A stretch of DNA of 64,000 bases from an uncultured Gammaproteobacteria bacterium (GCA_964406775.1 CAYOSW010000004.1:7392-71391); one strand, 5' to 3'; shown: positions 1 to 29,674, numbered from the stretch's first letter. Made by a program: numbers and translations. Notes: generated from the sequence alone by a model not told the origin.

Positions 1-14
1 ATTTATAATTCTTT

Positions 15-1634
15 TCATTTCTGCTTACCTAAAACAGGTTTTGTATTTAAGTCTTTAACATATTCCGGCTTTATTTCATATATGTCAGCAAAAGGATATT
101 TTTCTACAAGATTGTATTTAGAGAGCGCCTGAGTCTTCGAAACAGCCTTCCAGGTCGAATCATTATCATCATAAGTACGCATAATTATCCACCTGGCCCA
201 TCTGTCAGGAGAAGTTGTTCCCGATTCCCAATATTTACCCGTTCCTTCGTGAATGAATTTACTCATAGGCAGTCCCGAGGAAAAGATAATTGCATCGTGG
301 GAAGCTGCGGAAACTAAGACAAACCCTTCTTTGTCTTTGGCATTTTTATTTAACCATCCGGACACTTCACTGACATTTTTCTGTGACGATCCGACTCTGG
401 CATCATCGATTGTTACCGCATCATATGAAGAAAATTGGAAAAATAAGACAAACACTATCAGTCCGACAATTGCCAATCTATAGTTTTTAAGTTTATCAAT
501 TAGGAACCCTATGAAAATGGCGATTGACGGCATCATCATAATTCCATACCTCACATTAAACCAAACATCTCCCGATAAACCCTGGATGAATAAAACTGAA
601 TGACCCATATAAAGAGCAATTATATTGAAGATAAGTGGAGCAAGAAGTGCGCTTGAGGCAATTTTTATCCCTACTTTAACCTGCTTATCAATCCAAAGAG
701 CTACCATACCGAATAGACCGAGAATAGAAATGAAAGCATTACTGTTATAAGCCAGCGCGTATAGATAAAACTTTATGGAAAGTAAAATATTACCCTTTGT
801 AATTAAATTGCCTGAGCTTTCCAGTTGTAATTGCTGAGCGTGGGCGGAATACGGTCCGAAAGCGAAATACAAAGGATCCTTAAAAATCAGCTGATTCCAT
901 AAAAACCAGAGGAATAAACCTAATGACCCCAAAGTTGCGAAAAGAATATAAGTCCCTTCAATGTTTCTATATGATTTTAATTTATAACCTCCTGTTCGGA
1001 ATACTTCTAAAATTACGAGTCCGGAAACAAACATGAACAAAAACCAGCCGTCATAGCGGACTAATGTTGAAAGCATCACCCAAAAAGCCGACTTGATTAA
1101 ATTCAGAACCTGGCCGGTTTTGTGCCAAAGCATTAACTCGTAAACTCCGGCAGTCATAACCGCCAAAAGCAGCAGCTCAGTCATAGCAGTAGACTGAAGG
1201 TAAAGAATATTAATATTGGCAACAAATATCAGCACTCCAACAATTCTTCCCAGCAAGTTCACTCCTATTTGCTCCAAAAATCTGTAGATTAACGCACCCG
1301 TCGCTATAAAAGAAATCATCGAAACTATGGCTCCCGATAATCCCGAATGCCACATAAAATCATTCCAGATGGTTGGCAACATTAAAATATGAGGTAAAGG
1401 CAGCCAGACAGAACCTAGCTGAGCAGCGCCTGGTTTTAGTCCCTCAACTACTCTTCTTCCGATATCCAAATGGGATCTGGCATCGTTATATGACAGCCCC
1501 AGACCGCTGAAGTAATAAACAATAAAGCTGTATGCCGATATGAATATCAATAAATAAACTACCAGAAGCAGGATATGCTTATTCAAGGGCTTAAAAAAGT
1601 TAAACCAATTTTTATTGATTGAGATATTAAACAT
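15..1634 (-). CDS. Polytopic membrane glycosyltransferase, GT-C fold (phospholipid carrier-dependent glycosyltransferase, ArnT/PMT-like) with C-terminal soluble domain
   Basis: 539 aa with more than 10 predicted TM helices in the N-terminal 400 aa, followed by a hydrophilic C-terminal domain. It sits at the end of a glycosyltransferase operon on the same strand. No catalytic motif was verified. Confidence 0.45.
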   Translation of the reverse strand: MFNISINKNWFNFFKPLNKHILLLVVYLLIFISAYSFIVYYFSGLGLSYNDARSHLDIGRRVVEGLKPGAAQLGSVWLPLPHILMLPTIWNDFMWHSGLSGAIVSMISFIATGALIYRFLEQIGVNLLGRIVGVLIFVANINILYLQSTAMTELLLLAVMTAGVYELMLWHKTGQVLNLIKSAFWVMLSTLVRYDGWFLFMFVSGLVILEVFRTGGYKLKSYRNIEGTYILFATLGSLGLFLWFLWNQLIFKDPLYFAFGPYSAHAQQLQLESSGNLITKGNILLSIKFYLYALAYNSNAFISILGLFGMVALWIDKQVKVGIKIASSALLAPLIFNIIALYMGHSVLFIQGLSGDVWFNVRYGIMMMPSIAIFIGFLIDKLKNYRLAIVGLIVFVLFFQFSSYDAVTIDDARVGSSQKNVSEVSGWLNKNAKDKEGFVLVSAASHDAIIFSSGLPMSKFIHEGTGKYWESGTTSPDRWARWIIMRTYDDNDSTWKAVSKTQALSKYNLVEKYPFADIYEIKPEYVKDLNTKPVLGKQK

Positions 1635-3213
1635 TTTTTACCTTTCCTCTATCCAGTAAAAGTATTGAGTACAAGATGAAAGACATAAATATAATGCTTC
1701 CGGAAACAAGCCAATAAAAATTAGCAGCGGTTAAAACATTCCTCAGATACTCGCGGTAAACAAAAGATTTAGATCCGCTGTTTATTAAGAAATCTATATT
1801 TCGTTCATATGTATATTTCTGGACTTTACCGCTTAATTTTTCTAAATTCAGAACCTCATTTTTTGGAGGATTGGCACTAGAAGTTAATGCTCCTAATGTA
1901 TTTACTAATATTGAATAAATAAGAACTATCAAAAAAGCCAATAAAATAAAATAATTTCTCTTAAAGCGGGAGAGAGCAACCCCGATTAAAACTGCGAGCA
2001 GTGCATAACTCGGAATTAAATATCTTGAACCGAAAGCCCAGCCTCCGTAAGGATCTCCCCACATTGAGTAAAGAAGCACGTTAGCTCCTATGATAGAAAT
2101 TAATAGAGCAGCTATTTCCGGACGTGTTTTATTTAACACGAATAATCCTAAAATTCCGAAAAGTACAACCGGTGTAAAAAATATAATTCCCCTGTCCTCG
2201 CTTATAAAATGAGTATAAAATCCGTTAATTAAATTTCTGGTTTTAAAGAAGCCGACCGCCTCTTTCTTATCTTTTTTAGGATCTTCCAGAGGTACCTTAT
2301 CTTTCTCCTCCAATGGCTTATCTATTCCCAATTGTTTGTATATGTCCTTCTTCTCTAAAGGCTTACCTTGTTCATCAATACCCTTAACCCCCTGTACGGT
2401 ACCTCCCAACTGAAAGGGATTGCCGTAAGAAATTTTGTTAAACCAAAGAAAAAATAATAACGGAAGTACTGCTCCTAAGAAAGTGAGGACATAAATTAAA
2501 TTTATACCTATATTAATTTTTCTTTCATTTTTATGAACCGAGATAAATCTGCCTAATGCAAATACCGCTATCGGCAGCATAAAGAATAAGTTCGGATTAT
2601 CGATAACGATTGAGGATGCACATAAAAACCATATTAAACAAAGGGACCAAAAATTTTTCCATTTTAATAATGCATAAATACTCAGCAGAATTAAAAATGA
2701 CGAGATATGATGCTGATATAAATTAACAGCGTATGCGTATGCCGGAGTAGCAAACAAGAAAGTGAGCGCCCCTAAGCCTGATGCTGCTGCATTTGCTCCC
2801 AATTTTGAAGCTATCTTATATATAAGGAAGGCGTTGATTAGTGCAAATAATGCTATAACCGAATATGTGCCTATCTGAGCTAAGTTAAACATTCTACCCA
2901 GAAGGTATCCCGGCATAACAATATATGAAACACCCGGTGCGAACAGTGAAACATATTTCCCGTTAATCAGACCTAAATCCGGAGTAGCAAATCTGGCAAT
3001 AGGCAGAGTAAACACCGGAGTATGATTTTCCAATATTGAATAAGTCAAAGCATACCTCCCTCTTTCAGGAGATAACTCTAAAGGACCACCTTCAGTAAAA
3101 ACATAATCATTTAGGTTTTTCTCAGTTTGATTACCAGAAATGCCCCTTATACTAATTCCGAGTGTGAAAATAATAAAAATAGAAATGAGAAAAATATAAA
3201 ATTTCTTTAGCAT
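1627..3213 (-). CDS. GT-C family membrane glycosyltransferase (ArnT / GT39 / GT83-like, paralogous to the downstream gene)
   Basis: 528 aa, multi-TM with a charged periplasmic loop (KPLEEKDKVPLEDPKKDKKE). Its start overlaps the stop of the preceding gene by 8 nt. The architecture is typical of polyprenyl-phosphate-sugar dependent transferases. Confidence 0.5.
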   Translation of the reverse strand: MLKKFYIFLISIFIIFTLGISIRGISGNQTEKNLNDYVFTEGGPLELSPERGRYALTYSILENHTPVFTLPIARFATPDLGLINGKYVSLFAPGVSYIVMPGYLLGRMFNLAQIGTYSVIALFALINAFLIYKIASKLGANAAASGLGALTFLFATPAYAYAVNLYQHHISSFLILLSIYALLKWKNFWSLCLIWFLCASSIVIDNPNLFFMLPIAVFALGRFISVHKNERKINIGINLIYVLTFLGAVLPLLFFLWFNKISYGNPFQLGGTVQGVKGIDEQGKPLEKKDIYKQLGIDKPLEEKDKVPLEDPKKDKKEAVGFFKTRNLINGFYTHFISEDRGIIFFTPVVLFGILGLFVLNKTRPEIAALLISIIGANVLLYSMWGDPYGGWAFGSRYLIPSYALLAVLIGVALSRFKRNYFILLAFLIVLIYSILVNTLGALTSSANPPKNEVLNLEKLSGKVQKYTYERNIDFLINSGSKSFVYREYLRNVLTAANFYWLVSGSIIFMSFILYSILLLDRGKVKNV

Positions 3214-3214
3214 A

Positions 3215-4111
3215 TTAAGCAGTCACCTTCTTTGTTGAACTATCTATCTCCCATAAAACATTCAATATTTTTTTAGAATCAAGTCGAAAAATCTTTGTAT
3301 AAATATTTACTCCAATATAAAAAATCATCTTTATTGGATCTCTAAAAAGCTCTTCTATCAGAACACTTAAAATTATTCTTGTTGGTATTCTGTATTCCTT
3401 TTCTAATCTCCCATAATATTTTTCCATCTCCAATTTTGAAAGTTGGAATCTACTGCTTTTTCTTAAATGCTCTTTCATATTTTGGGGATTTTTGAATAAT
3501 ACATAGGCTTGAGGAAAATACCTGTAAATTCCATTTAGTTTCCTGTTTTGAAAATAGAAGTACGCGTCGTTTGTGGATATTGAATCCCGAATATCAAATT
3601 TTCTAACCCAATTTGTCCGAAAAGCCATAAATCTTCCTACAACAGCCAGGTAATTATCTCCCCTATCCCAATTTACTGCGATTTTGCTCACGATATCTGT
3701 TCCTTTATTCAAAATACTTTCAAAAAAATTTGTTGCCTTGACCGGTTTATTTAAAATACTCAGCATTGTTATTTCGGGGTGCTTAACAAACTGACTAATT
3801 ACTTTTTTTAATGTAGTTTTAGAGAAAAGCACATCATCTTGAGTTAAAATCAATAGATCTGTGTTTGTAAGCTCAATAATTTGTTTTCTTTTTTTTGCCT
3901 GGCTACTTTCAACTAAATTCTCATAAAATTCTACTTTAAGTTTACGTAATTGCTTTTTTACAAACTCGCTCAGAGGAACCCTATCGGCTATAAGGATAAT
4001 TTTGAATTTAGTTATTTTTTCAGAAGCCCTAATTGATTTAATAGTGTCAATTATCGACTCGCCACCATAACAAGTAGCAATGCCGACTGTTAAAGATAGT
4101 TTTTTATTCAT
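3215..4111 (-). CDS. Glycosyltransferase family 2 (GT-A fold)
   Basis: N-terminus LSLTVGIATCYGGESI... is a typical GT2 Rossmann start, followed by a D-rich segment (ILTQDD). The gene is translationally coupled (ATGA overlap) to its neighbours. Confidence 0.7.
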   Translation of the reverse strand: MNKKLSLTVGIATCYGGESIIDTIKSIRASEKITKFKIILIADRVPLSEFVKKQLRKLKVEFYENLVESSQAKKRKQIIELTNTDLLILTQDDVLFSKTTLKKVISQFVKHPEITMLSILNKPVKATNFFESILNKGTDIVSKIAVNWDRGDNYLAVVGRFMAFRTNWVRKFDIRDSISTNDAYFYFQNRKLNGIYRYFPQAYVLFKNPQNMKEHLRKSSRFQLSKLEMEKYYGRLEKEYRIPTRIILSVLIEELFRDPIKMIFYIGVNIYTKIFRLDSKKILNVLWEIDSSTKKVTA

Positions 4112-5388
4112 TTAAAAAGCCTTTCTTGATCCTTCCATAACTCAAATGAAAGTCTGTCTATTGGAAGATCAACATCATTAAAAGTTATAGCTTCATCCAT
4201 TTTTATATCTCTTTTTAAAACTGCTCCGTCTGTTAGACCCTGCGGAATTAAATTTTCTTTACGGGCTGTTTTACGGTTTTCTAAAACTCCATAAACAGTA
4301 AATCCTCCAATTCCATCAAGAACTTCTCCTTTTTTCAGGTCTTTTTTCGCAAGAGCAATAACCTCACAAACCGGAGCACCTATAGGGGCAAGCGAAGCGT
4401 CCTTAAAAATTACTGTCTGAGCAACCGTAATCGGTGCTTCTATCGGACTTAAGTGGCAGTGAGTATAAAAAGTATAAAAAGGTCCGTCTCCCATCTTATA
4501 ACATTTCATATATCTTCTTTTGATGGGGTTTTTTGAGTAGGCTATTACAAAAACTCCGAAAGAAGGTTCTGCACCGAGAATATAATCTGTCAATCCTGTT
4601 TTTAACATTTGTTTTTTATCAAATAAGTTAACTGCTTCTTCAACGCGCGAGGCTTTTAAGCCCAACATTCCTCTTTTAGCTACAGGGAATCCTGTGGCAT
4701 TAGCGATAGTTGCCATTTCAAAAGCAATTTTAGATCCGTCAGCGAATGAGGTAATCATCTTCGGTCTCTGCCAATGAGCCTTGGCAAAAGCGGCTTGAGT
4801 AATAGGAGTACGTCTTGCATCAATTAAACTTTTAATATTTCCAACCATTACCGGTTTGAATCCCATCTGCTTTACATATCTGAATATTCTCATTAATACA
4901 GCCGGCTGATCTCCTTCAGCCTGGGAAAACATAACACCGGCTTTATCGGCATACTTTTTAATTATCGGGCCGAGAGTCGCGTCAAGTTCGGCATTAACCA
5001 AAATCAGATGTTTTTTATTTTTTATTGCAGATATTGAGACCCGTGACCCGAATTCAACCTCACCGGTAGCTTCGACAATTACATCAATATTTTTAGAGTT
5101 AGTTAACAGTTCAAAGTCAGAGGTTATAGCCAATGTTCCGGATTTAATAAGCTTTTCAATTTGATCCTGAGATTTAACTTCTTTGTATTTCTTTACTTTC
5201 AAAAGCTTTAAGCCTTTTTCAATATTTTTAACTGTTCTGTTAGAAATTGCGGACAATCTCATTCCGGAAATACCCTCTAAAACCTGCATCCCAAATCCCT
5301 GACCTGCAAACCCAAAACCAACTAAGCCGATACGTATTGGCTTTCCGTTTTTCTCCAATTTTTCCAATGCTTTATCAATTATTATCAT
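4108..5388 (-). CDS. Predicted NAD(P)-binding dehydrogenase, homoserine-dehydrogenase-like with SAF domain (COG4091-like), probable sugar-nucleotide oxidoreductase
   Basis: N-terminal Rossmann motif IRIGLVGFGFAGQG and a C-terminal SAF-like region. It is embedded in the CDP-sugar gene block. Confidence 0.5.
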   Translation of the reverse strand: MIIIDKALEKLEKNGKPIRIGLVGFGFAGQGFGMQVLEGISGMRLSAISNRTVKNIEKGLKLLKVKKYKEVKSQDQIEKLIKSGTLAITSDFELLTNSKNIDVIVEATGEVEFGSRVSISAIKNKKHLILVNAELDATLGPIIKKYADKAGVMFSQAEGDQPAVLMRIFRYVKQMGFKPVMVGNIKSLIDARRTPITQAAFAKAHWQRPKMITSFADGSKIAFEMATIANATGFPVAKRGMLGLKASRVEEAVNLFDKKQMLKTGLTDYILGAEPSFGVFVIAYSKNPIKRRYMKCYKMGDGPFYTFYTHCHLSPIEAPITVAQTVIFKDASLAPIGAPVCEVIALAKKDLKKGEVLDGIGGFTVYGVLENRKTARKENLIPQGLTDGAVLKRDIKMDEAITFNDVDLPIDRLSFELWKDQERLFK

Positions 5389-5915
5389 TATTTATAAGCC
5401 TCCCAGGCTTTATCTTTTTCGGAGACTATCTCAACATTAATCGGCCAGTTAACTTTAAAAGACGGATCATCAAATCTTATTCCTCTTTCAAATTCTGCTG
5501 TAAAAGGCTGGTCCGAAAAATTTATGAATTCCGTATTATCTTCCAAAGTTAAAATTGCGTGGCCGCAATTGGGCGGAGTTAAAAGCATTTTGTAGTCACC
5601 GGCTTTTAATTCAAATCCTTCAATCTCTCCGTAAGTTGGTGAATCCTTCCGTAAATCAATTACCAGCTCGTATATTGATCCGCTTGTAACCCTGGTTAAT
5701 TTATACTCTGCAAAAGGAGGGACTTGATAATGGATCCCTCTCATTGTTCCTTTTTTCTCTGTAAAAGAAACATATCCCTGAATGACATTAAAAATTATTC
5801 CCCTCTCTTTAAATTTTTCGGTATCAAAAGTCCTCGCCAGAAACCCCCGGTCATCCGCTTTTTTCTCAAGTTCTATAATGAAACAATCCTTGATCTTAGT
5901 TTGAATAAATTTCAT
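5388..5915 (-). CDS. NDP-4-dehydro-6-deoxyhexose 3,5-epimerase (RmlC/RfbC-like cupin)
   Basis: 175 aa cupin. MKFIQTKIKDCFIIELEKKADDRGFLARTF matches the RmlC N-terminal consensus. Confidence 0.7.
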   Translation of the reverse strand: MKFIQTKIKDCFIIELEKKADDRGFLARTFDTEKFKERGIIFNVIQGYVSFTEKKGTMRGIHYQVPPFAEYKLTRVTSGSIYELVIDLRKDSPTYGEIEGFELKAGDYKMLLTPPNCGHAILTLEDNTEFINFSDQPFTAEFERGIRFDDPSFKVNWPINVEIVSEKDKAWEAYK

Positions 5916-5917
5916 AG

Positions 5918-6973
5918 TTATATTTTCCAGAAAAAATTTTTGTCAATTTGTTTAGTTTTAACCAGATGCTCTATCTCCTTAAGTCTGGTATAAGCTCTGG
6001 ATTCGAAAGTCTCTTTATCTAGTGCAATTGACTCAAAAACTTTTTTTAGATCTTTTACACCTTCCTGAACTGTCCGTTTTAACACCAGTTTTGGAAAAGT
6101 CCTTTTAATTTTTTCGAATGAAACTCTATAAGAGCGGGTGTCTCCATCAGGTTTTCCGAATGAAACTTTGCAACCCGGAAGAACTTTTCCGATTATTTCT
6201 GCAACCTCACGTACTTTATAATTTCCATCTGTATTTCCTACATTAAAAACCTGATTCTGTACTAAGTTTTTCGGTGCTTCCAGAACTGCCAGAAATGCTT
6301 CGCAAACATCAAGGATGTGAACAAGCGGCCTCCAAGGTGTTCCGTCAGAGGACATCCTAATTTCTTTCTCAGTCCAGGCTATGCCTGACAAATTATTAAC
6401 GACTAAATCAAATCTCATTCTCGGAGAAGGTCCGAATACTGTTGCGTTCCGCATATAAGCTACTGTAAAGAAAGGATCGGCCAATTTTTGAAGATCCTGT
6501 TCGACCAATAATTTACATTTAGCATATGCAGTTTGAGGAAAAACCTCCGATGTCTCATCTACCATTCCATCTTTTGCTATACCGTAAATGGAACAGGATG
6601 AGGAATAGATAAATCTTTTTACACCGGCTTTTTTAGCAAGCTTCGCAAGTCTGACTATTGCAGTGTGGTTGATATCGTATGTATTTTTAGGATCCTGATT
6701 TCCTAAAGGATCGTTGGATAAATCTGCAAGCGAAATAACAGCATCAAAACCTTTTAAATCCGTAAGAGTTATTTCTCTGGTATCCTTTGTTATTACTTTC
6801 GGGGAAAATTTTACTCCGTTATATAGCCAGCCTTCCCGGTAAAAACCGGAATCAATTCCCGTCACGTCGTGACCGCGCTTCATAAACACCTGAGCCATCT
6901 GAGTTCCGATATACCCGTCAATTCCTGTAATTATTACTTTCATTTTTTTACCAGACTTTCCAGGGCGCTTCAC
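5918..6973 (-). CDS. NAD-dependent epimerase/dehydratase (extended SDR), candidate CDP-sugar 4,6-dehydratase/epimerase/reductase
   Basis: MKVIITGIDGYIGTQ (TGxxGxxG) and YAKCK (YxxxK) motifs. It lies between the cytidylyltransferase and the RmlC-like epimerase. Confidence 0.7.
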   Translation of the reverse strand: MKRPGKSGKKMKVIITGIDGYIGTQMAQVFMKRGHDVTGIDSGFYREGWLYNGVKFSPKVITKDTREITLTDLKGFDAVISLADLSNDPLGNQDPKNTYDINHTAIVRLAKLAKKAGVKRFIYSSSCSIYGIAKDGMVDETSEVFPQTAYAKCKLLVEQDLQKLADPFFTVAYMRNATVFGPSPRMRFDLVVNNLSGIAWTEKEIRMSSDGTPWRPLVHILDVCEAFLAVLEAPKNLVQNQVFNVGNTDGNYKVREVAEIIGKVLPGCKVSFGKPDGDTRSYRVSFEKIKRTFPKLVLKRTVQEGVKDLKKVFESIALDKETFESRAYTRLKEIEHLVKTKQIDKNFFWKI

Positions 6974-7745: not shown

Positions 7746-7763
7746 TAACTATAAGTTATTATA

Positions 7764-8723: not shown

Positions 8724-8728
8724 AATTT

Positions 8729-9631: not shown

Positions 9632-9634
9632 AAA

Positions 9635-10630
9635 TTAATAATTCACTCCGAAATTTAAAAAGTCCGTAAACTTATCTATTTTTTCTCTGGTGAAATCCTT
9701 TCCGGTTAAACCGTGAGTTGCCGAATTAACAGCTAAACCTTTAAAGAGTTTTTTAAAATTCTTGTCTGACCGATAAATCTTTTTCAGTCTTCTCATCAGA
9801 TGAGTTGTTATATCCCCTTCTTTCCACAAATAGCGTAAAGTGGTTATGTTTTCATATAGTCCTAAGGTCCGGGCGCAAAGCTGAAAATCTATCAGAAAGA
9901 TCCGTTTTTTTCTGTCGACAATAATATTTCTGAAGTGCAGATCCCTATGGATAAGACGGTTAGAATTTTCGGACAAAAGAACGGGGATTGATTGCAAAAA
10001 AATAGGAACGCCTCTCAGCAATGATCTGAATACCCTAGGGTGTGTAAGCAAAGCCTTGGTCAGCAAAAAGGGATAGAGAATAATATAGTTAACAGAAGAT
10101 CTTCTTGAAATGCTCCTTAATTCCTCTTCTGTAAGTTTAGATCCGAGATAGTCCAAAAAAGCAGTAACTTTAAAGTAAATTCCGGTTTTTTCAGAACTCG
10201 AAAGATTTTCGGCAATTGTGCCGTCAATATATTTAATCAGAATTACTAAACTGTTCTCAGTCTCTTTAGAAGCAACAATTGAAGGAATCTTAATTTTTAA
10301 AAATTCTTCCGGCAATGATTTTGAATTCCTATCTAATACATTATTAAGAATTTCATATAATTTAAATTCATTCTTTAATGCATAGTAATTAAAATCTTTG
10401 AATTCACCGCTCCAGATTTTACCGACTGCTTTTTTTCCTTTTTGATCCGCGTACATTCCCAAATTAAAAGCCTTAACAGTCCCAATCTTCTCAATTGAGG
10501 ACTTTAATTTATAATTGCCCACTTTAACAGGTAACTTTGTTTCAACTTTTCTCCGCAATCTGCCATAAACTAGCGACTTAAGATAAACATAGATTAATCT
10601 GGAAAGAGTTAAAGAGCCGGAATTTTTCAT
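9635..10630 (-). CDS. Protein-kinase-like fold phosphotransferase (LPS/Kdo-kinase or aminoglycoside-phosphotransferase-like), possible glycan kinase
   Basis: HRDLHFRNIIV (HRD catalytic loop) followed by IFLIDFQL (DFG-like). It has no TM segment and is embedded among GT genes. Confidence 0.45.
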   Translation of the reverse strand: MKNSGSLTLSRLIYVYLKSLVYGRLRRKVETKLPVKVGNYKLKSSIEKIGTVKAFNLGMYADQKGKKAVGKIWSGEFKDFNYYALKNEFKLYEILNNVLDRNSKSLPEEFLKIKIPSIVASKETENSLVILIKYIDGTIAENLSSSEKTGIYFKVTAFLDYLGSKLTEEELRSISRRSSVNYIILYPFLLTKALLTHPRVFRSLLRGVPIFLQSIPVLLSENSNRLIHRDLHFRNIIVDRKKRIFLIDFQLCARTLGLYENITTLRYLWKEGDITTHLMRRLKKIYRSDKNFKKLFKGLAVNSATHGLTGKDFTREKIDKFTDFLNFGVNY

Positions 10631-10632
10631 AG

Positions 10633-13600
10633 TTATTTTGCAAAAACCTCCTGGCCTAATAAAGGATAGTTCTTGGGGTGAATCTCCTCATTAATTAACC
10701 TTAAAAATTTTTGTTTACTTAAATCCCAACTGAAATTCAATGACCATACAAACGCTTCCTCAGATAATTCTCTTCTTAGTTTTGTATCTGAGATAATTTT
10801 TAATAACGCATCTGCAAACGCATTGATATTTTTTGGAGCAACCAAAATTCCGGTTTTCCCATTAACTATTGAGTCTCTAAGTCCGTTTACATCCGAAGCT
10901 ATTACCGGTGTCATACAAGCGTTTGCTTCGATTACAGTCATACCCCAGCCTTCAATCATTGAGGGCTGAACCATCACCCAGCTTTCTGTTAATAATTTAT
11001 GTTTCTCTGAATCGTTTACCCTACCCAAAAAGTGAACTGCATGTCCGATCTGCAACTGAGAAACCAATTTTTTTAATTTAACAGAGCTCTCTCCCGATCC
11101 TGCTATAGCAAAAAGCGCGTTGGGATATTTTTGCAGAATCTGCGCAAAAGCTTTAATCGCAACATCGATATTTTTGTACGGCTGCAGTCTTCCCAGATAC
11201 AGAACTTGAGGATTGGCAGTTTTTGTCAGTTTAGACGGCGTCGAAATATTTATTCCGGGATTGATAATTTCTATTTGTTTAAAATTGTCTTTTGCGAGTT
11301 TGATTATTTCAGCTTTTGATGACTGGGAAACCGTTATTACCTTTTGATTTTTGTAAACAAGCGGCATAAGTTTACCTTCTAAAAAGGATGCCAAAACCGC
11401 CAGAGGCAGAGGAAGATGGTTTCTGAATACTTCCTGGTGGATATGGTGTATTAATAAGAATTTCGGTTTTTTTACAAAAAGGGGTGTAAAGAAGGGGATT
11501 CCATTTTCAGAATCAATAACAACATCATATTTTCCTCTGAGTCTTAACATATAGTAAAGAGCTGCCCAGAAATAAACCATATAAAATCCCCCTCTTCGGA
11601 TTATTTGTATTCCGTCAATGACTTCATAGCGGGGACTATGGCCGTCACTGCCGGAGAAAACCGTAACTTGGAATCCGGCATCTACGCATTTTTTTGCTAT
11701 TTCGTGGATATATGATTCTGCACCCCCGGCCCATTTATGCTTTATGTCTCTCCAGTTAAATATCAATATTCTTTTTTGACCTTCTTTTACAGATACCGTT
11801 ATCTTTCCTTTATCCGATAAAGGCGAAAAAACAAGATCGAAGAGATCCAAAAATGCCCTTTCGGAAAGCCAGATATAATTTCTCAGGATATGCAAAAACC
11901 CCATCAAAGCAAAATTAAATGCACTTACTAAAAACATTATCCAAACGATTTGTGTTAAATTTTCGTGGAATATTGAAAGCAGAATTATTTGACCTACAGA
12001 TGCGGCAAATCCCACAACAACAAACAAGTGATTTTCTCTGGCCTGAAAGTATGAGATTACGGGCTGAGCGACGGTAAATAAAATAATTCCGGCGATGTAG
12101 ACAGGAATTAAATCCAGCACCGAGTATATCTTTGCACCGAAAAATATCGGCAGAATAACCGGTCCGAATAGAACCAGACCTAAGCCGGCCGATACTGTGA
12201 GCGATACAGTTAAGCCGAATAGAATAACAAATGTCCTGCTGCTTTTTTTATCTGCTCCTTCATTTCTTGCAACCAGCGGAAGCATTAGAGGTGCAAGCAG
12301 GGAACCGAAAAAGAACACCATTTTCCCGGGAAGAGAGAGCAGTCCGTATTGACCTGCTTCGAACGGACTTAAAAAGTGTTTTACCAAAACAACATCAAGA
12401 CCAAGAAAGGCAATATTTGTAATCCCGATTAGCAGCGAAGAAATATAAAAAGGCAGATTAAATTTAGCATGAGAGATCTGCATTTTTTTAACGGAAGGTT
12501 TACCGCTTAAAATCGAATTTAAAACAAGAGCGACAGTCATAGAAACCGGAATGGCAACGTAAACAAGATCACTCATTCCGGATTCGGTAAGCAGAATAAT
12601 CATTGATAGTTTTATTAATGCTTCAATCACTCCTACAAGAGCTATCTTGCTGAAGGACAGAGTTCCCTTCAAAAACCCCGAGAAATTAGCTCCGATTATC
12701 GCAATCAGCCAAACAGGACTGAAAATAAGGAATGGGATTGTCGAGTTTGTATTAAAGAATTTCTCCAGAAAAGGAATTGAAACTAACCAGATTAACATCA
12801 ATCCGATACCGGTAAACATTGACTTATTTACAAACTGGTCCAGATATCCTCTTGCCTGATCTTTGGAATATTTGCCGTACAGAAAAGCAATTTTTTGCGT
12901 AATTGTTGCCGAAAGTGCACCTAAAGGAATTGTCGAAATAAACAGAAAACTTGTAAAAAGATTCAGGTTGCCGTAATCCTCAAAAGTAAGTTTTCTTCCC
13001 AGATATGCATTGATAAAAAAATTACAGAAATTACTTATAAGCGATGCAAAAACCAGGGTAGAGGCTCCGAAGTAAACTTTCCTGAAACCTATTGAATCCG
13101 CTAATCTTTCCGTCAGTCTTTTTCCTATACCCGGTCTGGTAGTAGGGGAAACTGCAGCCGAGATAATGATGTCTGAGGTCTTCTCCTCAATTTCAGGCTG
13201 TTTAGCCAAATGAAGACCGTGGATTGTTTTCTCCCAGTAATGAGGTTTAACAATCAGCTGATAAAGTGCCATAACTGCCGCAACGGAACCCATTAACCAA
13301 TAGATAGGCACCAAGAATACGTATTTCATTAGCGCCCAATGATCTCTTTTTGCCGCACCGATCATATAGTTATAGATATATAAAAAGTTGCCTGCGATTA
13401 AAGAAAATACCGCGAAGTAAAAAACTACCGACGGAAAAAGAGATTCGATAAATGCCGAGGTGTATTGGTAATAAGCAAAGTAAGCAAATGTCGTGGCCCA
13501 AAGGACAGGATTGATTAACATAAACGAAATCCGGGCGCCAATGATTAATTGAAAAACAAACGCGTGCCACCCGTGATCTCTCACAAGCTCAACAGGTTTA

Positions 13601-15345
13601 CGCATATGGACTAAATAAGTCTGCATATATCCTTTAAGCCAGCGAGACCTTTGTCTTATCCAGTTTTTAACGTTACTGTTAGCTTCCTCAAGCGTTATAG
13701 AATCGATAATCGCGGTTTTATAACCCTTCTTAAAAAGTCTCACCCCTAAATCGCAATCCTCAGTAACATTAAAAGGATCCCAGCCTTCCAGCTCAATTAA
13801 GGTTTTAGTTCTAAAGTGGTTACTGGTTCCTCCTAAAGGAATAACCGTGTCGATTGATTGGAGTCCGGTTAACATCACATCAAACCAAAGTGAATATTCG
13901 GCCGTAAAGAAACGGGTTAATAAATTCTGATGAGGGTTAAAATAATTTAATTTTGCCTGGAGACAAACTATATTGGGCTTCGATTTCTTAAACGCCAGAT
14001 ATGCTTTTTTAAGCTGATCGGGTTCGGGAATATCCTCCGCATCGTAAACTACCAAGTATTCACCCTGCGCAAAATTTAATCCGTAGTTACAGGCTTTCGG
14101 CTTTGTTTTAGGCTCGCTTTCCGGAACAATAACCGTCGAGACATATTTAGGGAGACTCATCGCTTTAACAGCATCTATACTTATTTGGTCGTCTTCCTCG
14201 AGAAGCAGTTTTACATCCAGTTTATTTTTCGGATAATCAAGATTTGCTATAGCCTCTAAAAAGTGCGGAACAATATGTGCCTCCCTGTAAAGAGGACAGA
14301 GAATCGTATAAATAGGTAGACCCTCATCCTTAAGAGAAGTAAGCTCTTCCGCTGTAGAAGTAATTTCCGGCGGAAAATGCAGGCTTTTTAAAACAACATA
14401 TAGATTAAATAAAACATCAATAAAATACACAAAACTTAATATTCCGATAATTGAGATAAGCGTTGTAATGGGGCTTAAAATAATACCGATCTCTAAGATA
14501 ATTACCCCCAAAAGAATCACCAAAATCTGGCTTAAATGAAAAACTTCGAGAGCGGAGTGCTCCGGCTTTAGAGTCGTATGGGTTTTCAGCCATTTCCTGT
14601 TATGAATGAATCCCGCTCCAGCCATTGTATCGGAGGTTACCGGTTTAATCAGATAAGTTTTTCGTTTCGAAAGTTTTAATTTTAGGGCATTTTTACCGAT
14701 TTCTGCTGAAGTTTTAATGAGGTTAACTTTGGAGTGGCCGCCCGTCCGTTTATCAAAAGTAATATCTACACCGGCGATTTTAAATCCTAAATTACGAGCG
14801 GTATTCAGAAGAGCTAGATCGAGCGTCCAGGGAGTAAGTTCTTTTTCATCAATATAATCCAAAATTTCTTTACGGAATAGTTTCAAACCGGATTGCACAT
14901 CTACTTTAAATCCGTGAAGAAGTCTCCCGAAGCTGAAATTAAAAATCCTTGAGACTGTTTTCCTTAAAAATGAGGCCTGAAAACCTTTGCGGTTGGCAAC
15001 AACAACACCGTTTTCCTGAGCCTTAAAGTACATTTCCGAAATTGACTCGGGCGGATATTGTAAATCGGCATCCAACATAACTACATATTCGGATTTTGAA
15101 TGTTTTGCTCCTTCCAAAATTGAATACGCCTTGCCTGGTTTGCCTTTTTTTGTGTAGATCTCGATGGGATAACTCTCTTGCAGAAGATTAAGCACTTCCA
15201 ATGTTTTATCTGTTGAATGGTCGTCAACAAAAATCATTTTGTAGGCAATTTTTGCGTCAAGCATTGACTTGTTTATCCTCTGAATGAGGGGATAAATATT
15301 GGTTTCCTCGTTTTTAACAGGAATAATGATATCGAGATTTCTCAT
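10633..15345 (-). CDS. Giant four-domain glycan assembly protein: N-terminal GT2 (Dpm1/GtrB-like polyprenyl-phosphate glycosyltransferase), processive QxxRW-type GT2 synthase, polytopic flippase-like membrane domain, C-terminal GT4
   Basis: 1570 aa. Residues 1-230: NLDIIIPVKNEETNIYPLIQRI...FVDDHSTDKT (GT2). Residues ~330-610: second GT2 with YDAED (DxD) and QRSRWLKGY (QxxRW), then TM helices. Residues ~740-1160: about 10-12 hydrophobic helices. Residues ~1180-1570: GT4 with EGWGMTVIEANACMTPVIASD (E-x7-E). Confidence 0.75.
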   Translation of the reverse strand: MRNLDIIIPVKNEETNIYPLIQRINKSMLDAKIAYKMIFVDDHSTDKTLEVLNLLQESYPIEIYTKKGKPGKAYSILEGAKHSKSEYVVMLDADLQYPPESISEMYFKAQENGVVVANRKGFQASFLRKTVSRIFNFSFGRLLHGFKVDVQSGLKLFRKEILDYIDEKELTPWTLDLALLNTARNLGFKIAGVDITFDKRTGGHSKVNLIKTSAEIGKNALKLKLSKRKTYLIKPVTSDTMAGAGFIHNRKWLKTHTTLKPEHSALEVFHLSQILVILLGVIILEIGIILSPITTLISIIGILSFVYFIDVLFNLYVVLKSLHFPPEITSTAEELTSLKDEGLPIYTILCPLYREAHIVPHFLEAIANLDYPKNKLDVKLLLEEDDQISIDAVKAMSLPKYVSTVIVPESEPKTKPKACNYGLNFAQGEYLVVYDAEDIPEPDQLKKAYLAFKKSKPNIVCLQAKLNYFNPHQNLLTRFFTAEYSLWFDVMLTGLQSIDTVIPLGGTSNHFRTKTLIELEGWDPFNVTEDCDLGVRLFKKGYKTAIIDSITLEEANSNVKNWIRQRSRWLKGYMQTYLVHMRKPVELVRDHGWHAFVFQLIIGARISFMLINPVLWATTFAYFAYYQYTSAFIESLFPSVVFYFAVFSLIAGNFLYIYNYMIGAAKRDHWALMKYVFLVPIYWLMGSVAAVMALYQLIVKPHYWEKTIHGLHLAKQPEIEEKTSDIIISAAVSPTTRPGIGKRLTERLADSIGFRKVYFGASTLVFASLISNFCNFFINAYLGRKLTFEDYGNLNLFTSFLFISTIPLGALSATITQKIAFLYGKYSKDQARGYLDQFVNKSMFTGIGLMLIWLVSIPFLEKFFNTNSTIPFLIFSPVWLIAIIGANFSGFLKGTLSFSKIALVGVIEALIKLSMIILLTESGMSDLVYVAIPVSMTVALVLNSILSGKPSVKKMQISHAKFNLPFYISSLLIGITNIAFLGLDVVLVKHFLSPFEAGQYGLLSLPGKMVFFFGSLLAPLMLPLVARNEGADKKSSRTFVILFGLTVSLTVSAGLGLVLFGPVILPIFFGAKIYSVLDLIPVYIAGIILFTVAQPVISYFQARENHLFVVVGFAASVGQIILLSIFHENLTQIVWIMFLVSAFNFALMGFLHILRNYIWLSERAFLDLFDLVFSPLSDKGKITVSVKEGQKRILIFNWRDIKHKWAGGAESYIHEIAKKCVDAGFQVTVFSGSDGHSPRYEVIDGIQIIRRGGFYMVYFWAALYYMLRLRGKYDVVIDSENGIPFFTPLFVKKPKFLLIHHIHQEVFRNHLPLPLAVLASFLEGKLMPLVYKNQKVITVSQSSKAEIIKLAKDNFKQIEIINPGINISTPSKLTKTANPQVLYLGRLQPYKNIDVAIKAFAQILQKYPNALFAIAGSGESSVKLKKLVSQLQIGHAVHFLGRVNDSEKHKLLTESWVMVQPSMIEGWGMTVIEANACMTPVIASDVNGLRDSIVNGKTGILVAPKNINAFADALLKIISDTKLRRELSEEAFVWSLNFSWDLSKQKFLRLINEEIHPKNYPLLGQEVFAK

Positions 15346-15519
15346 TTTAGGCCCATAAAATCCGAAACTATATATAGATCAAAAATTATGAAGGCCTATA
15401 ATAACATACTCTATTATAAATTTCTAGCTTATAGTTGTTGAAATTAAATTTTTAAAAGTTTGAGTAAAAATTTTGACGAAGTCGCAAGCTTCGCTTTAGA
15501 CCTGAGTCGCAAGCTCTGC

Positions 15520-16473: not shown

Positions 16474-16475
16474 AA

Positions 16476-17561
16476 CTACTGGCGTCCGGCATCCTTAGGC
16501 GGAGTAAGAAGCAGATTCGGTATCTGAATTGAAAAACTGTCGTGTTTGTTTAATATTTTTTCTTTAAGAATTATCGATGGATTTGGTGTTCCCCAAAAAT
16601 TCGGGCCGAATATAAAACTTCCGTTACATCCGCTCGTAAAACTGACTTGTCCAAGAATGATATTGTCCCTTATTTTTACGGCGCTGTCGCAGGCTATACT
16701 GATTAGACTATTACCGGAGAAATAATTACGGGCAATTAAGCCTTCCTGGAGTTGGCCTCCGGAAATAAAATCAATGACTGTGCGCTTAGGCATCTCAAAG
16801 CTGTTACGGGTAATAAAAGGCACGGAAATTCTTCTTGCATCGACCCTAATTCCGTCACCGTCAAGATTTTGGAATAAATTATTATCTATCTCCGGACTTG
16901 CCCTGTATACCAAAACCGATTGTCTTAACCCGCTTCCGAAATTACTGTTATAAATTCTGGGTTTCCCCCGGTCCATACATAGAGAGCATTCCCCAGTATC
17001 CGAGAACTTGGAGTTTGAGATGTCAGTATTACCGCCTATCTCAAATTTCCTATAATCTGAAAAAAATCCGTTGTTTATATTCCCTTTTCTGATCTTAATT
17101 ACATTAATGTCATAAGGGCTCGGATCGACAGAGTCGGATTTAAACACCGCAGGATTTGCAGAGGTACCTTGAACAACTAAATTATTCAGATGAATCTGAA
17201 TTTTTTCTCCTTCATCCCAAAAAGGCTCCCCTGGAGCAACCCCCCGGGAGAACAGGCCTGTATTTACCCCGCTTTTTTGGTGCCAGGGAAGAAAATCCAT
17301 ATTCGATTTATCGCCGGTAATAGCAACTTTTACTAAAGTTCCAGGCATTACTATTATTGTCGTGTCTGCCGGAGAAAAGATGTCTCCTGTTACGGAAATT
17401 TCGCCTTCCCAAACCTGATCCGATAAGATCAGACCATAGACCTCTGTATCCTTAATGTGCTGAACCGGCAAAATTCTCGGCACTCCGAAAAAAAAGGCTA
17501 AACCCAGAAAAAGGGTCGACGAGGCAATAATCAGAACTTTAAAAAACCAGTGGAGTTTCAT
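16476..17561 (-). CDS. Secreted/membrane-anchored right-handed beta-helix repeat protein (possible polysaccharide-active enzyme)
   Basis: N-terminal TM/signal segment. Repetitive G/N/S-rich segments are consistent with parallel beta-helix repeats. First gene of the minus-strand glycan operon. Confidence 0.4.
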   Translation of the reverse strand: MKLHWFFKVLIIASSTLFLGLAFFFGVPRILPVQHIKDTEVYGLILSDQVWEGEISVTGDIFSPADTTIIVMPGTLVKVAITGDKSNMDFLPWHQKSGVNTGLFSRGVAPGEPFWDEGEKIQIHLNNLVVQGTSANPAVFKSDSVDPSPYDINVIKIRKGNINNGFFSDYRKFEIGGNTDISNSKFSDTGECSLCMDRGKPRIYNSNFGSGLRQSVLVYRASPEIDNNLFQNLDGDGIRVDARRISVPFITRNSFEMPKRTVIDFISGGQLQEGLIARNYFSGNSLISIACDSAVKIRDNIILGQVSFTSGCNGSFIFGPNFWGTPNPSIILKEKILNKHDSFSIQIPNLLLTPPKDAGRQ

Positions 17562-17577
17562 CAGAAAATCTCAAGTA

Positions 17578-24346: not shown

Positions 24347-24437
24347 AATTATAAGTTGTTTACCGATATTACAGAATCTTCATAACTTTGTAAACCCCGA
24401 ATAAATGTCCGGAGCGTGCCTGCGCCTTGCAAAGTGA

Positions 24438-24650
24438 TTAAGCAGTTTTTACCTGATAACCGGTTTTCTTGATACTCTCAATTAAAACTTCTTCCTGTAT
24501 CTTACTCTCGTCAAACTCTATCTCTGTAAGCTGTTTAGCATAGCTGGTTTTTGATGATTTTACTCCGCTTAAATCCTCCAGATCAAAATCAATATTCATC
24601 GCACAAGCTGTGCAATTCATACCTGAAATTTTAAAAATAACTTTTTTCAT
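24438..24650 (-). CDS. copZ: Copper chaperone CopZ (HMA domain)
   Basis: 70 aa. The GMNCTACA MxCxxC motif is typical of heavy-metal-associated domains. Confidence 0.8.
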   Translation of the reverse strand: MKKVIFKISGMNCTACAMNIDFDLEDLSGVKSSKTSYAKQLTEIEFDESKIQEEVLIESIKKTGYQVKTA

Positions 24651-24652
24651 AG

Positions 24653-27919: not shown

Positions 27920-27921
27920 AG

Positions 27922-28194: not shown

Positions 28195-28204
28195 AGAGTA
28201 AATG

Positions 28205-29372: not shown

Positions 29373-29373
29373 A

Positions 29374-29664: not shown

Positions 29665-29674
29665 AAAATTTAGA

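Follow-up and report, generated by a model that had tools for sequence, protein, structure and literature searches.

What does the block of glycan genes at 15..17561 make, and from which activated sugar? The block lies in a 64,000-nucleotide stretch of DNA (the window), whose ORF list shows it to be tiled by 13 co-directional minus-strand ORFs (Table 1). Plus-strand ORFs in this interval (89-101 aa) lie inside minus-strand genes. The first-pass annotation had placed all genes on the minus strand, with overlaps or tiny gaps, and probably in one operon; its domain assignments were present overall in our Pfam, NCBIfam and PDB searches. The strand was as described, and so was the spacing (8-nt overlap to 18-nt gap, with a nominal 26-nt overlap between rfbF and the GTG start of the short-chain dehydrogenase/reductase [SDR] gene), except for a single gap of 174 nt. 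Because this gap contains a terminator-like hairpin and a promoter-like site, both consensus matches no commoner in the region than in shuffled sequence, we consider it a probable operon boundary and no longer assign all 13 genes to one operon. The D,D-carboxypeptidase and 361-aa genes upstream of it probably form their own transcription unit, which leaves a predicted surface-glycan operon of 11 genes running from 15345 down to 15 (~15 kb).

The carboxypeptidase thus keeps its enzymatic assignment, but probably not its place in the glycan operon. The "beta-helix" label of the 361-aa protein was dropped, as Pfam and NCBIfam gave no match (DUF1565 only at E=0.038) and the PDB search was empty. 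Homologues of these two proteins were absent from all related loci fetched, few of which reach upstream of the giant gene. The closest homologues of the window's proteins are labelled Daviesbacteria, Levybacteria and other Patescibacteria; by these sequence affinities the source is a Microgenomates/Patescibacteria (candidate phyla radiation) bacterium, in keeping with the earlier view that a lineage with a reduced genome devotes a large locus to a surface glycan.

Table 1. Genes and intergenic region of the block, in order of transcription.
Feature	Coordinates	Strand	Basis and remarks
361-aa secreted or anchored protein, fold unassigned	16476..17561	-	N-terminal hydrophobic segment (hydropathy)
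S11 D,D-carboxypeptidase, 317 aa	15520..16473	-	Peptidase_S11 PF00768 181 bits; separate upstream unit probable
Intergenic region	15346..15519	-	terminator-like hairpin 15494-15476, promoter-like site 15441-15413
Giant four-module protein, 1570 aa, operon's first gene	10633..15345	-	Pfam, PDB, NCBIfam, hydropathy
Protein-kinase-like/APH-like protein, 331 aa, accessory	9635..10630	-	APH 27.1 bits
GT2, 300 aa	8729..9631	-	PF00535 59.4 bits
GT2, 319 aa, one C-terminal hydrophobic segment	7764..8723	-	PF00535 78.9 bits; hydropathy
RfbF, glucose-1-phosphate cytidylyltransferase (to CDP-D-glucose)	6948..7745	-	TIGR02623 407.4 bits, cutoff 300.25, E=2.2e-122
Extended SDR, 351 aa	5918..6973	-	Epimerase 145 bits; true start likely Met11, ~6943
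RmlC-like cupin, 175 aa	5388..5915	-	PF00908 166 bits; TIGR01221 135.6, cutoff 155.75 not reached
DRL-family (DLO1-type) NAD(P) oxidoreductase with SAF domain, 426 aa	4108..5388	-	PF21135 152.6 bits
Divergent GT2, 298 aa	3215..4111	-	PF00535 22.6 bits, just under cutoff 23.3
Polytopic GT-C-fold transferase, 528 aa, unannotated family	1627..3213	-	structure prediction and fold search
Polytopic GT-C-fold transferase, 539 aa, second unannotated family	15..1634	-	structure prediction and fold search

The giant protein opens with a polyprenyl-phosphate glycosyltransferase-like GT2 module (residues ~3-290, TM ~274-292). Its PDB matches over residues 2-213 are DPMS 5MLZ, ArnC and GtrB 5EKP (E about 1e-15), bearing out the GtrB-like domain proposed earlier, and the NCBIfam ArnC profile spans residues 3-290. 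A processive synthase-type GT2 module follows (346-642; motifs DAED, TED and QRSRW; TMs 597-694), with BcsA as the PDB match for residues 338-584. The third module is a polytopic block (~760-1151) with at least 8 TM segments by hydropathy, for which we found no significant family match, flippase families included (Polysacc_synt E=1.4), and no PDB match. The last is a GT4 module (1207-1550), matched by GT4 enzymes in the PDB over 1206-1559. The original tally of four GT2 was therefore an undercount: there are three GT2 genes plus the giant protein's two GT2 and one GT4 domains. In the adjacent kinase-like protein the catalytic loop alone matches (residues ~205-265, HRDLHFRN...IDF; Pfam APH, and weakly Kdo-kinase and Bud32).

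Neither polytopic protein matches Pfam. Their sole sequence-level match is a putative glycosyltransferase model from Leptospira LA_3751/LA_3752, far under cutoff; NF047440 gave 54 bits on the 528-aa protein (cutoff 200), whose 1196 homologues are all annotated as hypothetical. Its AF2 model (pLDDT 87.7, pTM 0.90) had GT-C proteins as its top 22 Foldseek matches in the PDB, ArnT 5EZM among them (E=4.4e-5). The first outer loop of each protein holds invariant acidic residues, D51 for the 539-aa enzyme and E46 and D79 for the 528-aa one, and the 539-aa protein, whose gene is the last visible before the window edge, has a conserved C-terminal extracytoplasmic domain. On predicted structure, then, both proteins have the GT-C fold, as had been proposed, while neither is by sequence a member of ArnT (GT83) or PMT (GT39), the enzymes to which they had been likened: they share the polytopic fold and acidic loop residue with ArnT, PMT and STT3/PglB (GT66), but at 8-14% identity and with no family HMM match.

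We assessed conservation in 80 metagenome loci anchored on a homologue of the 539-aa protein, with denominators that differ per gene. The 528-type gene immediately preceded the 539-type gene in 66/66 loci, and the giant gene lay within 10 kb of the pair in 30/37; among annotated examples of related loci (L003, L005 and L086), the first two have giant-protein orthologues of 1570-1581 aa. A gene for a membrane-anchored protein of ~337 aa followed the pair in 62 of 66 loci; such downstream core genes are known from the relatives, their position falling outside the window. Gene content in the interval from the giant gene to the GT-C pair differs from genome to genome. The kinase-like gene was found in 16 of 37 loci, and the glycan phosphorylation suggested for its product in the annotation stays hypothetical. 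These comparisons show that the predicted core, a giant four-module glycosyltransferase with two adjacent GT-C transferases, is conserved across the Microgenomates lineage.

A polyprenyl-phosphate GT2 and a GT-C enzyme also share one locus in GtrA/GtrB/GtrC-type and CsbB/GtcA/YfhO systems (PMC8035078, PMC11127046). With the GT-C fold in the two polytopic proteins and a polyprenyl-phosphate GT2-like N-terminus in the giant protein, the Gtr-type resemblance suggested earlier, with its three-component logic, is reasonable. The window departs from these systems in that its charging GT2 is fused, within the 1570-aa protein, to a synthase-type GT2, the polytopic block and a GT4, its two GT-C genes belong to unannotated families and are always paired, and no GtrA-family flippase gene was found in the locus. 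It is possible, though less probable, that the GT-C pair and the charging module carry out protein O-glycosylation instead of decorating a polysaccharide, with the Ser/Gly-rich sortase-anchored protein of related loci as target. After the GT-C pair, 43/60 loci encode an LPXTG-like protein whose linker is rich in Ser and Gly, and 32/54 a sortase; the giant N-terminal module matches streptococcal PgfS (62 bits), and a GT-C-based system acting on Ser/Thr-rich regions of proteins is described for streptococci (PMC12041528). However, unlike PMT and STT3, the window pair has no detected MIR domains and no WWDYG-type oligosaccharyltransferase motif, nor PMT domains (no Pfam matches), the processive synthase-type GT2 with its QRSRW motif speaks for polymer synthesis, the gene for the putative target is beyond the window, and fold similarity does not reveal the acceptor type.

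As proposed in the first-pass annotation, rfbF encodes a genuine CDP-glucose-forming enzyme: its product scores beyond the TIGR02623 equivalog cutoff. The annotation further derived a CDP-6-deoxyhexose from it, and this we could not uphold, since the only SDR lacks the residue couple of 4,6-dehydratases. All 4,6-dehydratases described to date need an Asp-Lys (or Asp-Glu, or Glu) couple (PMC8987622). In our alignment, the motifs SSCS[VI]YG and YAxCK are invariant in the SDR family, against TSDKCYEN in RfbG, such that every member has Cys-Ser (SSCS) in place of the Asp-Lys couple (TSDK). The SDR has no TIGR02622 match and reaches only 28 bits on the dTDP-glucose dehydratase model, and tblastn (E<=1e-3) found no RfbG in the window. 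Among 83 related loci, 29 carry this SDR, 22 carry RfbG and none carries both. An unconventional dehydratase would explain such mutual exclusivity equally well, and the conserved Cys that replaces Asp may itself be catalytic. With SSCS for TSDK, no TIGR02622 match and no co-occurrence with RfbG, the SDR is probably not a CDP-glucose 4,6-dehydratase. Its best PDB match is 6VO6 (E=5.7e-30, ~30% identity), which we take to be Cj1427, a C4-dehydrogenase that acts without dehydration. From the missing motif, this similarity and the mutual exclusivity with RfbG, we infer that the SDR is a CDP-glucose C4-dehydrogenase, oxidizing without 4,6-dehydration.

Aligned to 7PVI and 3RYK, the RmlC-like cupin keeps His62, Lys72 and Asp168, with Asn132 replacing the catalytic Tyr that is retained in 67/73 DRL-linked homologues; lacking this acid, epimerization in the window may be partial, different or absent. 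The "COG4091-like dehydrogenase" of the annotation is indeed an oxidoreductase, more precisely a DLO1-type relative of DXR-II, sharing its family and fold (PF21135 plus SAF; PMC3847144, 3UPY) and the conserved DGSK..E core. No function assigned to the DLO clades turned up in searches of the open-access literature. Its strong similarity to Brucella DXR-II 3UPY (241 bits, E=1.8e-70) might point to a genuine DXR-II supplying MEP for synthesis of the polyprenyl carrier, but we regard this as very improbable: the phosphonate/phosphate anchors are changed (T229 to Ile, K191 to Asn), Ile at 229 fits the DLO1 signature (Ile/Leu/Val), and the DLO proteins tested did not complement dxr (PMC3847144). Its genomic context is moreover sugar-nucleotide metabolism. 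Among 80 genome loci, an RmlC-like gene ends at most 200 nt directly upstream of the DRL gene in 62, across more than 10 phyla, and RfbF (at least 45% identity) is nearby in 57. In loci L028 and L058, four-gene RfbF-RfbG-RmlC-DRL cassettes lead directly into glycosyltransferases with no other reductase; as the sole reductase candidate there, the DRL homologue is presumably a sugar-nucleotide 4-ketoreductase. DRL relatives are reductoisomerases, and more than simple reduction is possible.

The DRL enzyme is fused to a 298-type GT2 (56% identity) in P0019, and DRL is present in 7/8 related loci with a homologue (at least 40%) of the 298-aa GT2, suggesting that this GT2 transfers the cassette's CDP-sugar. 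Misassembly or a frameshift could also account for the P0019 fusion; in the window, the DRL and GT2 genes have a 4-nt overlap.

The proposed logic of C4 oxidation without dehydration, RmlC-type epimerization and reduction is that of the C. jejuni heptose pathway, with Cj1427 as C4-dehydrogenase, Cj1430 as 3,5-epimerase and Cj1428 as C4-reductase (PMC10680097). The window differs in its substrate, which would be CDP-glucose rather than GDP-heptose, in an SDR with ~30% identity to 6VO6, in a cupin without the Tyr acid and in a DRL-fold rather than SDR reductase; Cj1427 also features 2-oxoglutarate ping-pong recycling. An RfbF-first order, continued by a 4-keto-forming SDR, an RmlC-type cupin or epimerase and then a reductase, is shared with the classical rfbF-rfbG CDP-deoxyhexose pathways and with that of C. 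jejuni HS:41 for CDP-6-deoxy-L-altrose/CDP-D-fucose, ordered cytidylyltransferase, 4,6-dehydratase, 3,5-epimerase and C4-reductase (PMC12369002). By this analogy the SDR would be a non-canonical CDP-glucose 4,6-dehydratase, with the cupin and DRL enzymes completing a CDP-6-deoxyhexose. The SDR does fill the exact slot of bona fide RfbG in the 22 sister loci (483-512 bits on TIGR02622), and the invariant Cys beside its catalytic Ser might act as acid. The orthologous Levybacteria locus carries a sugar C-methyltransferase, a type of enzyme whose usual substrates are 4-keto-6-deoxy sugars. We nonetheless judge this route unlikely, given the family-wide loss of the dehydratase couple, the failure to match TIGR02622, the missing RfbG and the non-dehydrating nearest solved relative; the window also differs from these pathways in its non-SDR reductase and in having no pyranose/furanose mutase. 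The 6-deoxy route is real, by its gene content, in the RfbG-carrying relatives, and probably not in this window; 3,6-dideoxyhexoses are excluded by the lack of an RfbH/E1-type 3-dehydrase in the locus. It is less probable still that the roles are swapped, with DRL oxidizing CDP-glucose and the SDR as terminal reductase, or that the SDR is a CDP-glucose 4-/2-epimerase apart from the RmlC-DRL step. The SDR has an SSS-x-x-YG motif like GalE-type epimerases, GalE is its top NCBIfam match (96 bits), and SDR-class CDP-glucose 2-epimerases exist (PMC7851689). Yet DRL in RfbG-type cassettes must act after the 4-keto sugar forms, the strict exclusion of RfbG is not expected of a simple epimerase, and RmlC-type enzymes depend on a 4-keto substrate, for which the operon has no other supplier.

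We therefore favor, at a probability of roughly 0.55, a model in which the 11-gene Microgenomates operon builds a cell-envelope glycan, with a wall polymer or a sortase-anchored protein as candidate acceptor, by combining its core machinery with a cassette for a CDP-hexose still bearing its 6-hydroxyl. The synthase-type GT2 and GT4 modules of the giant protein would make the backbone, its N-terminal module would charge polyprenyl phosphate with sugar, its polytopic module may flip lipid-linked intermediates, and the two GT-C enzymes would transfer polyprenyl-linked sugar on the membrane's outer face. RfbF forms CDP-D-glucose, the SSCS-type SDR would oxidize C4 as Cj1427 does, the atypical cupin may rearrange stereocenters beside the keto group, and the DLO1-type enzyme would reduce it. 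The product is most likely a CDP-hexose with its 6-OH kept, added to the glycan by the adjacent 298-aa GT2. The cassette is an accessory module of the conserved core, carried by ~17% of loci (DRL in 9/52 of the 539-anchored loci), and depends on an uncharacterized DXR-II relative.

The region from 17561 down to 15 holds 13 consecutive minus-strand open reading frames (ORFs) in the window ORF listing, and at most junctions neighbouring genes overlap or lie no more than 18 nt apart, the single exception being a 174-nt gap ahead of the gene for a 1,570-aa protein (the giant protein). This gap contains a terminator-like hairpin with a T-run behind it and a promoter-like site, although shuffled sequence yields such sites at least as often as the region itself. 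No homologue of the two genes before the gap, for a D,D-carboxypeptidase and a 361-aa protein, was found in the related loci that we fetched, few of which reach upstream of the giant gene; in one that does, L003 from Levybacteria, the upstream DNA carries unrelated genes. Based on the gap with its candidate sites and the absence of both genes from related loci, we read the region as a putative 11-gene glycan operon (15..15345) with a separate two-gene unit ahead of it. The first-pass annotation had described a probable single operon over 15-17561, which fits the tight, co-directional run of 11 genes, while the carboxypeptidase/361-aa unit is probably split off by the gap. The window edge truncates the locus right after the 539-aa gene.

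The carboxypeptidase itself was correctly named at first pass, as its Peptidase S11 domain scores 181.4 bits (Pfam gathering cutoff, 27.6). The only beta-helix-type match of the 361-aa protein is DUF1565 (E=0.038, below its cutoff), and searches of PDB and NCBIfam returned no match for it. A peptidoglycan-remodelling neighborhood (15520-18998) adjoins the glycan operon. Further along, a housekeeping context includes a transketolase split into separate genes for its N-terminal and C-terminal parts, and the window contains one tRNA gene.

Features of the glycan locus, its surroundings and related loci (window positions unless a related locus is named)
Feature	Position	Strand	Remark
539-aa polytopic protein	15..1634	-	GT-C pair
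528-aa polytopic protein	1627..3213	-	GT-C pair
298-aa protein		-	divergent GT2; between DRL homologue and 528-aa gene
DRL homologue, 426 aa	4108..5388	-	overlaps 298-aa GT2 gene by 4 nt (4108-4111)
RmlC-like cupin, 175 aa	5388..5915	-
SDR, 351 aa	5918-6973	-	longest ORF; GTG start, 26-nt overlap with rfbF
RfbF	6948..7745	-
300-aa and 319-aa proteins		-	GT2 genes; downstream of kinase-like gene in transcription order
Giant gene, 1,570 aa	10633-15345	-	C-terminal module is GT4
174-nt gap	between 10633-15345 and 15520-16473	-	giant gene/D,D-carboxypeptidase
Promoter-like site, 10/12	15441-15413		consensus match; inside the gap
Terminator-like hairpin, then T-run	15494-15476		consensus match; inside the gap
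S11 D,D-carboxypeptidase	15520-16473	-
YkuD L,D-transpeptidase	17578-18315	+
VanW-domain protein	18312-18998
Thioredoxin/DsbA-like protein, DsbD-cupredoxin fusion, heavy-metal P-type ATPase, split transketolase	23579-30562		housekeeping context
tRNA-Gln	54897-54968		sole tRNA in the window
Membrane-anchored ~337-aa protein, LPXTG-type protein, sortase	L003 17133-18889; L005 11669-13972; L086 15372-17526		past the GT-C pair; the window ends before this point
DRL homologue-GT2 fusion P0019, 730 aa	L086 7286-9478
Cassette of Gloeobacter morelensis	L002 4970-11308
Cassette of Levybacteria	L003 6245-11859

Four genes of the operon form a sugar-nucleotide cassette. The cytidylyltransferase gene is rfbF, as first annotated (glucose-1-phosphate cytidylyltransferase): its product matches TIGR02623 at 407.4 bits, against an equivalog cutoff of 300.25, over profile positions 1-255 of 255. 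Judged by its sequence, the SDR of the cassette is not RfbG. TIGR02622 (RfbG), on which the true RfbG proteins of sister loci reach 483-512 bits, was absent among the 23 NCBIfam families listed for it; its top NCBIfam match was GalE (96 bits), and its top solved relative was PDB 6VO6 (E=5.7e-30), which we take to be Cj1427. Cj1427 is a C4-dehydrogenase that forms a 4-keto sugar without dehydration (PMC10680097), and 4,6-dehydratases need Asp-Lys, Asp-Glu or Glu as acid/base next to the catalytic Ser/Thr (reviewed in PMC8987622). In an alignment of ~37 SDR-family members with 8 RfbG proteins, SS-C-S was invariant in the SDR family versus TS-D-K in RfbG, and neither the window SDR nor any of 35+ family members had the Asp-Lys couple after the catalytic Ser/Thr. 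Extended-SDR features are conserved (TGIDGYIG of the Rossmann fold, SSS, YAKCK; PF01370, 145 bits). The true start of the SDR is probably near 6943, since homologue alignments begin at Met11 (MKVIITG).

The DRL homologue, a COG4091-type oxidoreductase, matches Brucella DXR-II (3UPY) at E=1.8e-70. DXR-II anchors its substrate through Thr229 and Lys191/Lys193 (PMC3847144); aligned to 3UPY, the window protein keeps Lys193, but Thr229 is replaced by Ile and Lys191 by Asn. The uncharacterised DLO1 clade is marked by Ile, Leu or Val at position 229, and those of its members that were tested fail to complement dxr (PMC3847144). We reject a true DXR-II role because of these anchor residues together with the genomic context. 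In the open-access literature, we found no paper assigning a function to DLO proteins since they were described in 2013.

RmlC enzymes use a His base with an Asp partner, a Lys and a Tyr acid. The RmlC-like protein of the window carries PF00908 (166 bits) and retains His62, Lys72 and Asp168, but Asn132 occupies the catalytic-Tyr column, where PDB 7PVI and 3RYK have Tyr. Its TIGR01221 score of 135.6 bits lies below the equivalog cutoff of 155.75. Among 73 DRL-linked RmlC-like homologues, 67 keep the Tyr, which is missing only in the window and four close Microgenomates loci (5/73), all of which have the SSCS-type SDR. The window protein also has Phe138 in place of a second conserved Tyr.

A profile search of species-representative genomes with the DRL homologue returned at least 591 loci, and the best 80 of these were analysed, with gene presence scored by tblastn using the window proteins. 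They span Patescibacteria, Cyanobacteria, Chloroflexota, Actinomycetota, Bacteroidota, Planctomycetota, Acidobacteriota, Desulfobacterota, Pseudomonadota and others. An RmlC-like gene lies on the same strand as DRL in 76 of these best 80 loci and ends within 200 nt of the DRL start in 62, and RfbF is present at ≥45% identity in 57. Sister cassettes occur in cultured carriers, including Pontibacter, Polaromonas, Gloeobacter and Fontivita. We surveyed the slot between RfbF and RmlC in 83 loci (the 80 genome loci plus the related loci L002, L003 and L005). It is occupied by the SSCS-type SDR (≥45% identity) in 29 and by bona fide RfbG (483-512 bits on TIGR02622) in 22, and no locus holds both; seven further loci have SDR relatives at 31-38% identity with the same SSCS motif.

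This alternation bears on what the SDR does. An enzyme that takes the place of RfbG could be an unconventional 4,6-dehydratase, a reading that we consider unlikely; the motifs of the SDR indicate instead that it most likely leaves the 6-hydroxyl in place. The CDP-6-deoxyhexose that was originally proposed is thus not supported by an SDR with SS-C-S and no TIGR02622 match. By parsimony, the SSCS-type SDR would supply the 4-keto substrate in the window cassette. As for the next step, compact RfbF-RfbG-RmlC-DRL cassettes (L028, L058), directly followed by glycosyltransferases, contain no other reductase, which argues that DRL is the 4-ketoreductase. In a more far-reaching reading, to which we give a probability of about 0.25, the RmlC-like/DLO1 pair would mark a widespread, uncharacterised sugar-nucleotide branch that spans more than 10 phyla, with at least 591 genome loci. 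Here a DXR-II relative with a homoserine-dehydrogenase fold would replace the usual SDR 4-ketoreductase or might even rearrange the sugar skeleton. There would be two entries to it, RfbG leading to 6-deoxy sugars and the SSCS-type C4-dehydrogenase keeping the 6-hydroxyl. In Microgenomates, the branch would provide a rare CDP-activated hexose, possibly an L-hexose, to a lineage-specific system of the envelope centred on two new GT-C families, a giant transferase of four modules and a sortase-anchored protein.

Some cassettes carry additional genes. That of Gloeobacter morelensis has an FAD oxidoreductase (DAO) between RfbF and the SDR, two tandem DRL paralogues, and Wzc/Wza/Wzy-type export genes after the cassette. 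The Levybacteria cassette includes an inositol-monophosphatase-like gene, found again in L086, along with two methyltransferases, one of them a sugar C-methyltransferase (Methyltransf_13/14); this gene content suggests that a methylated version of the product is made.

The N-terminal GT2 domain of the giant protein has DPMS (5MLZ, E=6.3e-16), ArnC (9BHC, 3.2e-15) and GtrB (5EKP, 8.5e-15) as PDB relatives, with a transmembrane (TM) helix at 274-292 behind it by hydropathy. In its GT2-A domain, membrane helices and similarities, this module resembles polyprenyl-phosphate glycosyltransferases; it is not an ArnC equivalog, as the ArnC profile spans residues 3-290 at 74 bits against a cutoff of 529 (NCBIfam). 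The second GT2, with motifs YDAEDIP, NVTEDCD and IRQRSRW followed by TMs 597-694, has the features of a processive membrane GT2 synthase of the BcsA/PgaC type, with BcsA among its PDB matches and a PgaC profile match of 92 bits, below cutoff. The polytopic block (~760-1151) has no significant family match; a flippase role is unsupported, with Polysacc_synt at E=1.4 and no PDB match at E<=10. No ORF in 15..17561 matched a GtrA-family flippase in Pfam. The 331-aa kinase-like protein has the catalytic loop HRDLHFRN and the metal-binding-Asp motif IDF, and matches APH at 27.1 bits (Pfam cutoff, 23.2) over ~60 residues. Its matches to PDB entries and PADLOC models run through the catalytic loop only, and we draw no defence-system reading from them.

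The two polytopic proteins had been called ArnT/PMT-like GT-C transferases, and here the GT-C fold stood, with likeness to ArnT/PMT at fold level only. AlphaFold models were built from 42-sequence alignments. The 528-aa model (pLDDT 87.7, pTM 0.90) retrieved GT-C enzymes as all of its top 22 Foldseek matches in PDB (ArnT 5EZM at E=4.4e-5, ALG12, EmbA/B, Pmt4, STT3, AftB, ALG9); GT-C enzymes also led the list for the 539-aa model (pLDDT 72.5), whose first outer loop is poorly modelled (EL1 pLDDT <50). The predicted folds support placing both proteins in the GT-C superfamily. The 539-aa family has an invariant D51 in YNDARSH just past TM1, and the first outer loop of the 528-aa family has a nearly invariant E46 and an invariant D79. 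Neither protein matched any Pfam family even at E<=10, including PMT, PMT_2 and related families, and in NCBIfam only a Leptospira putative-GT model appeared, far below threshold. Sequence models thus place neither protein in ArnT (GT83) or PMT (GT39). Homologues of the pair among the matches listed are all unnamed or "hypothetical", and BLASTP and hhalign detected no real homology between the two families.

L003, L005 and L086 share a common frame: after the giant gene come variable genes, then a gene for a ~297-aa GT2, three genes of 509-517, 541-552 and 325-341 aa, one of ~190-213 aa and finally a sortase gene. We counted components in 80 metagenome loci, each anchored on its homologue of the 539-aa protein, with eligible loci as denominators. 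The 528-type gene lies directly upstream of the 539-type in 66/66, a ~337-aa gene lies downstream in 62/66, and the giant gene lies within 10 kb in 30/37; an LPXTG-like protein is present in 43/60, a sortase in 32/54, the kinase-like gene in 16/37, DRL in 9/52 and RfbF in 4/43. The ~200-aa downstream protein of relatives combines a signal peptide and a Ser/Gly-rich linker with LA[SP]TG, a TM helix and a basic tail. Neither Pfam nor PDB gave a match for the ~337-aa protein of related loci, and a glycoside hydrolase identity based on its GEFG motif was dropped for lack of such support. In the same position, other genomes have other modules: L003 has methyltransferases and the inositol-phosphatase-like gene, and L005 an acetyltransferase, a Wzx-type flippase and a deacetylase. 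These counts, and the other modules at the same place, argue that the sugar cassette is an accessory module that can be swapped, attached to a core that is conserved and specific to the lineage. G+C is 0.34-0.39 over the variable part of the operon (window 1-12000) versus 0.40-0.47 in most of the remaining window, which fits a module that can be swapped, possibly through horizontal exchange.

Eight loci contain a homologue of the 298-aa GT2 at ≥40% identity, and seven of them have DRL. In L086, DRL is fused to a GT2 half 56% identical to the window enzyme; since these two genes have a 4-nt overlap in the window, the fusion may be genuine or may reflect an assembly error of one base. This co-occurrence, with the fusion, makes the 298-aa GT2 the likely user of the cassette product. 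Three MAG contigs titled "uncultured Gammaproteobacteria" (L007, L008, L041) carry a Microgenomates-type locus (giant gene at 48-50% and 539-aa homologue at 64-75% identity), and their labels are probably wrong. In L041, the Microgenomates core occurs together with a true RfbG.

The enzyme families present, the identity of RfbF, the gene-linkage patterns and the GT-C fold of both polytopic proteins are established, and a mechanism can be proposed from them. The cassette would convert CDP-glucose through a 4-keto intermediate to a CDP-hexose, which the 298-aa GT2 would add to a glycan built and extended by the cytoplasmic modules of the giant protein and the small GT2 enzymes. The N-terminal module of the giant protein would load a sugar onto polyprenyl phosphate, and the GT-C pair would use lipid-linked sugar at the outer face of the membrane. 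Such a system would work like three-component Gtr/CsbB-YfhO glycosylation, but the window locus has no GtrA-type flippase and its GT-C proteins fall outside the described families. The cassette follows a logic like that of Cj1427/Cj1430/Cj1428 and also resembles the CDP-6-deoxy pathway of C. jejuni HS:41 (PMC12369002); it differs in its DRL-fold reductase and, in the window, its Tyr-less cupin. No paper on this Patescibacteria locus, on Patescibacteria GT-C systems or on COG4091 in glycan clusters was found in the open-access literature.

A locus of this type is in itself unsurprising; the concrete leads lie in the RmlC-DLO pairing, in the alternation of RfbG with the SSCS-type SDR and in two GT-C families that lack annotation. 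A CDP-hexose pathway that bypasses 4,6-dehydration is probable, and for the DLO relatives of DXR-II we propose a function as sugar-nucleotide 4-ketoreductases. Bacteria of the candidate phyla radiation are mostly uncultured and their envelopes poorly known; this locus, two of whose core enzymes, the GT-C pair, come from families without any annotation, ranks among the larger conserved gene sets that they devote to the chemistry of their surface.
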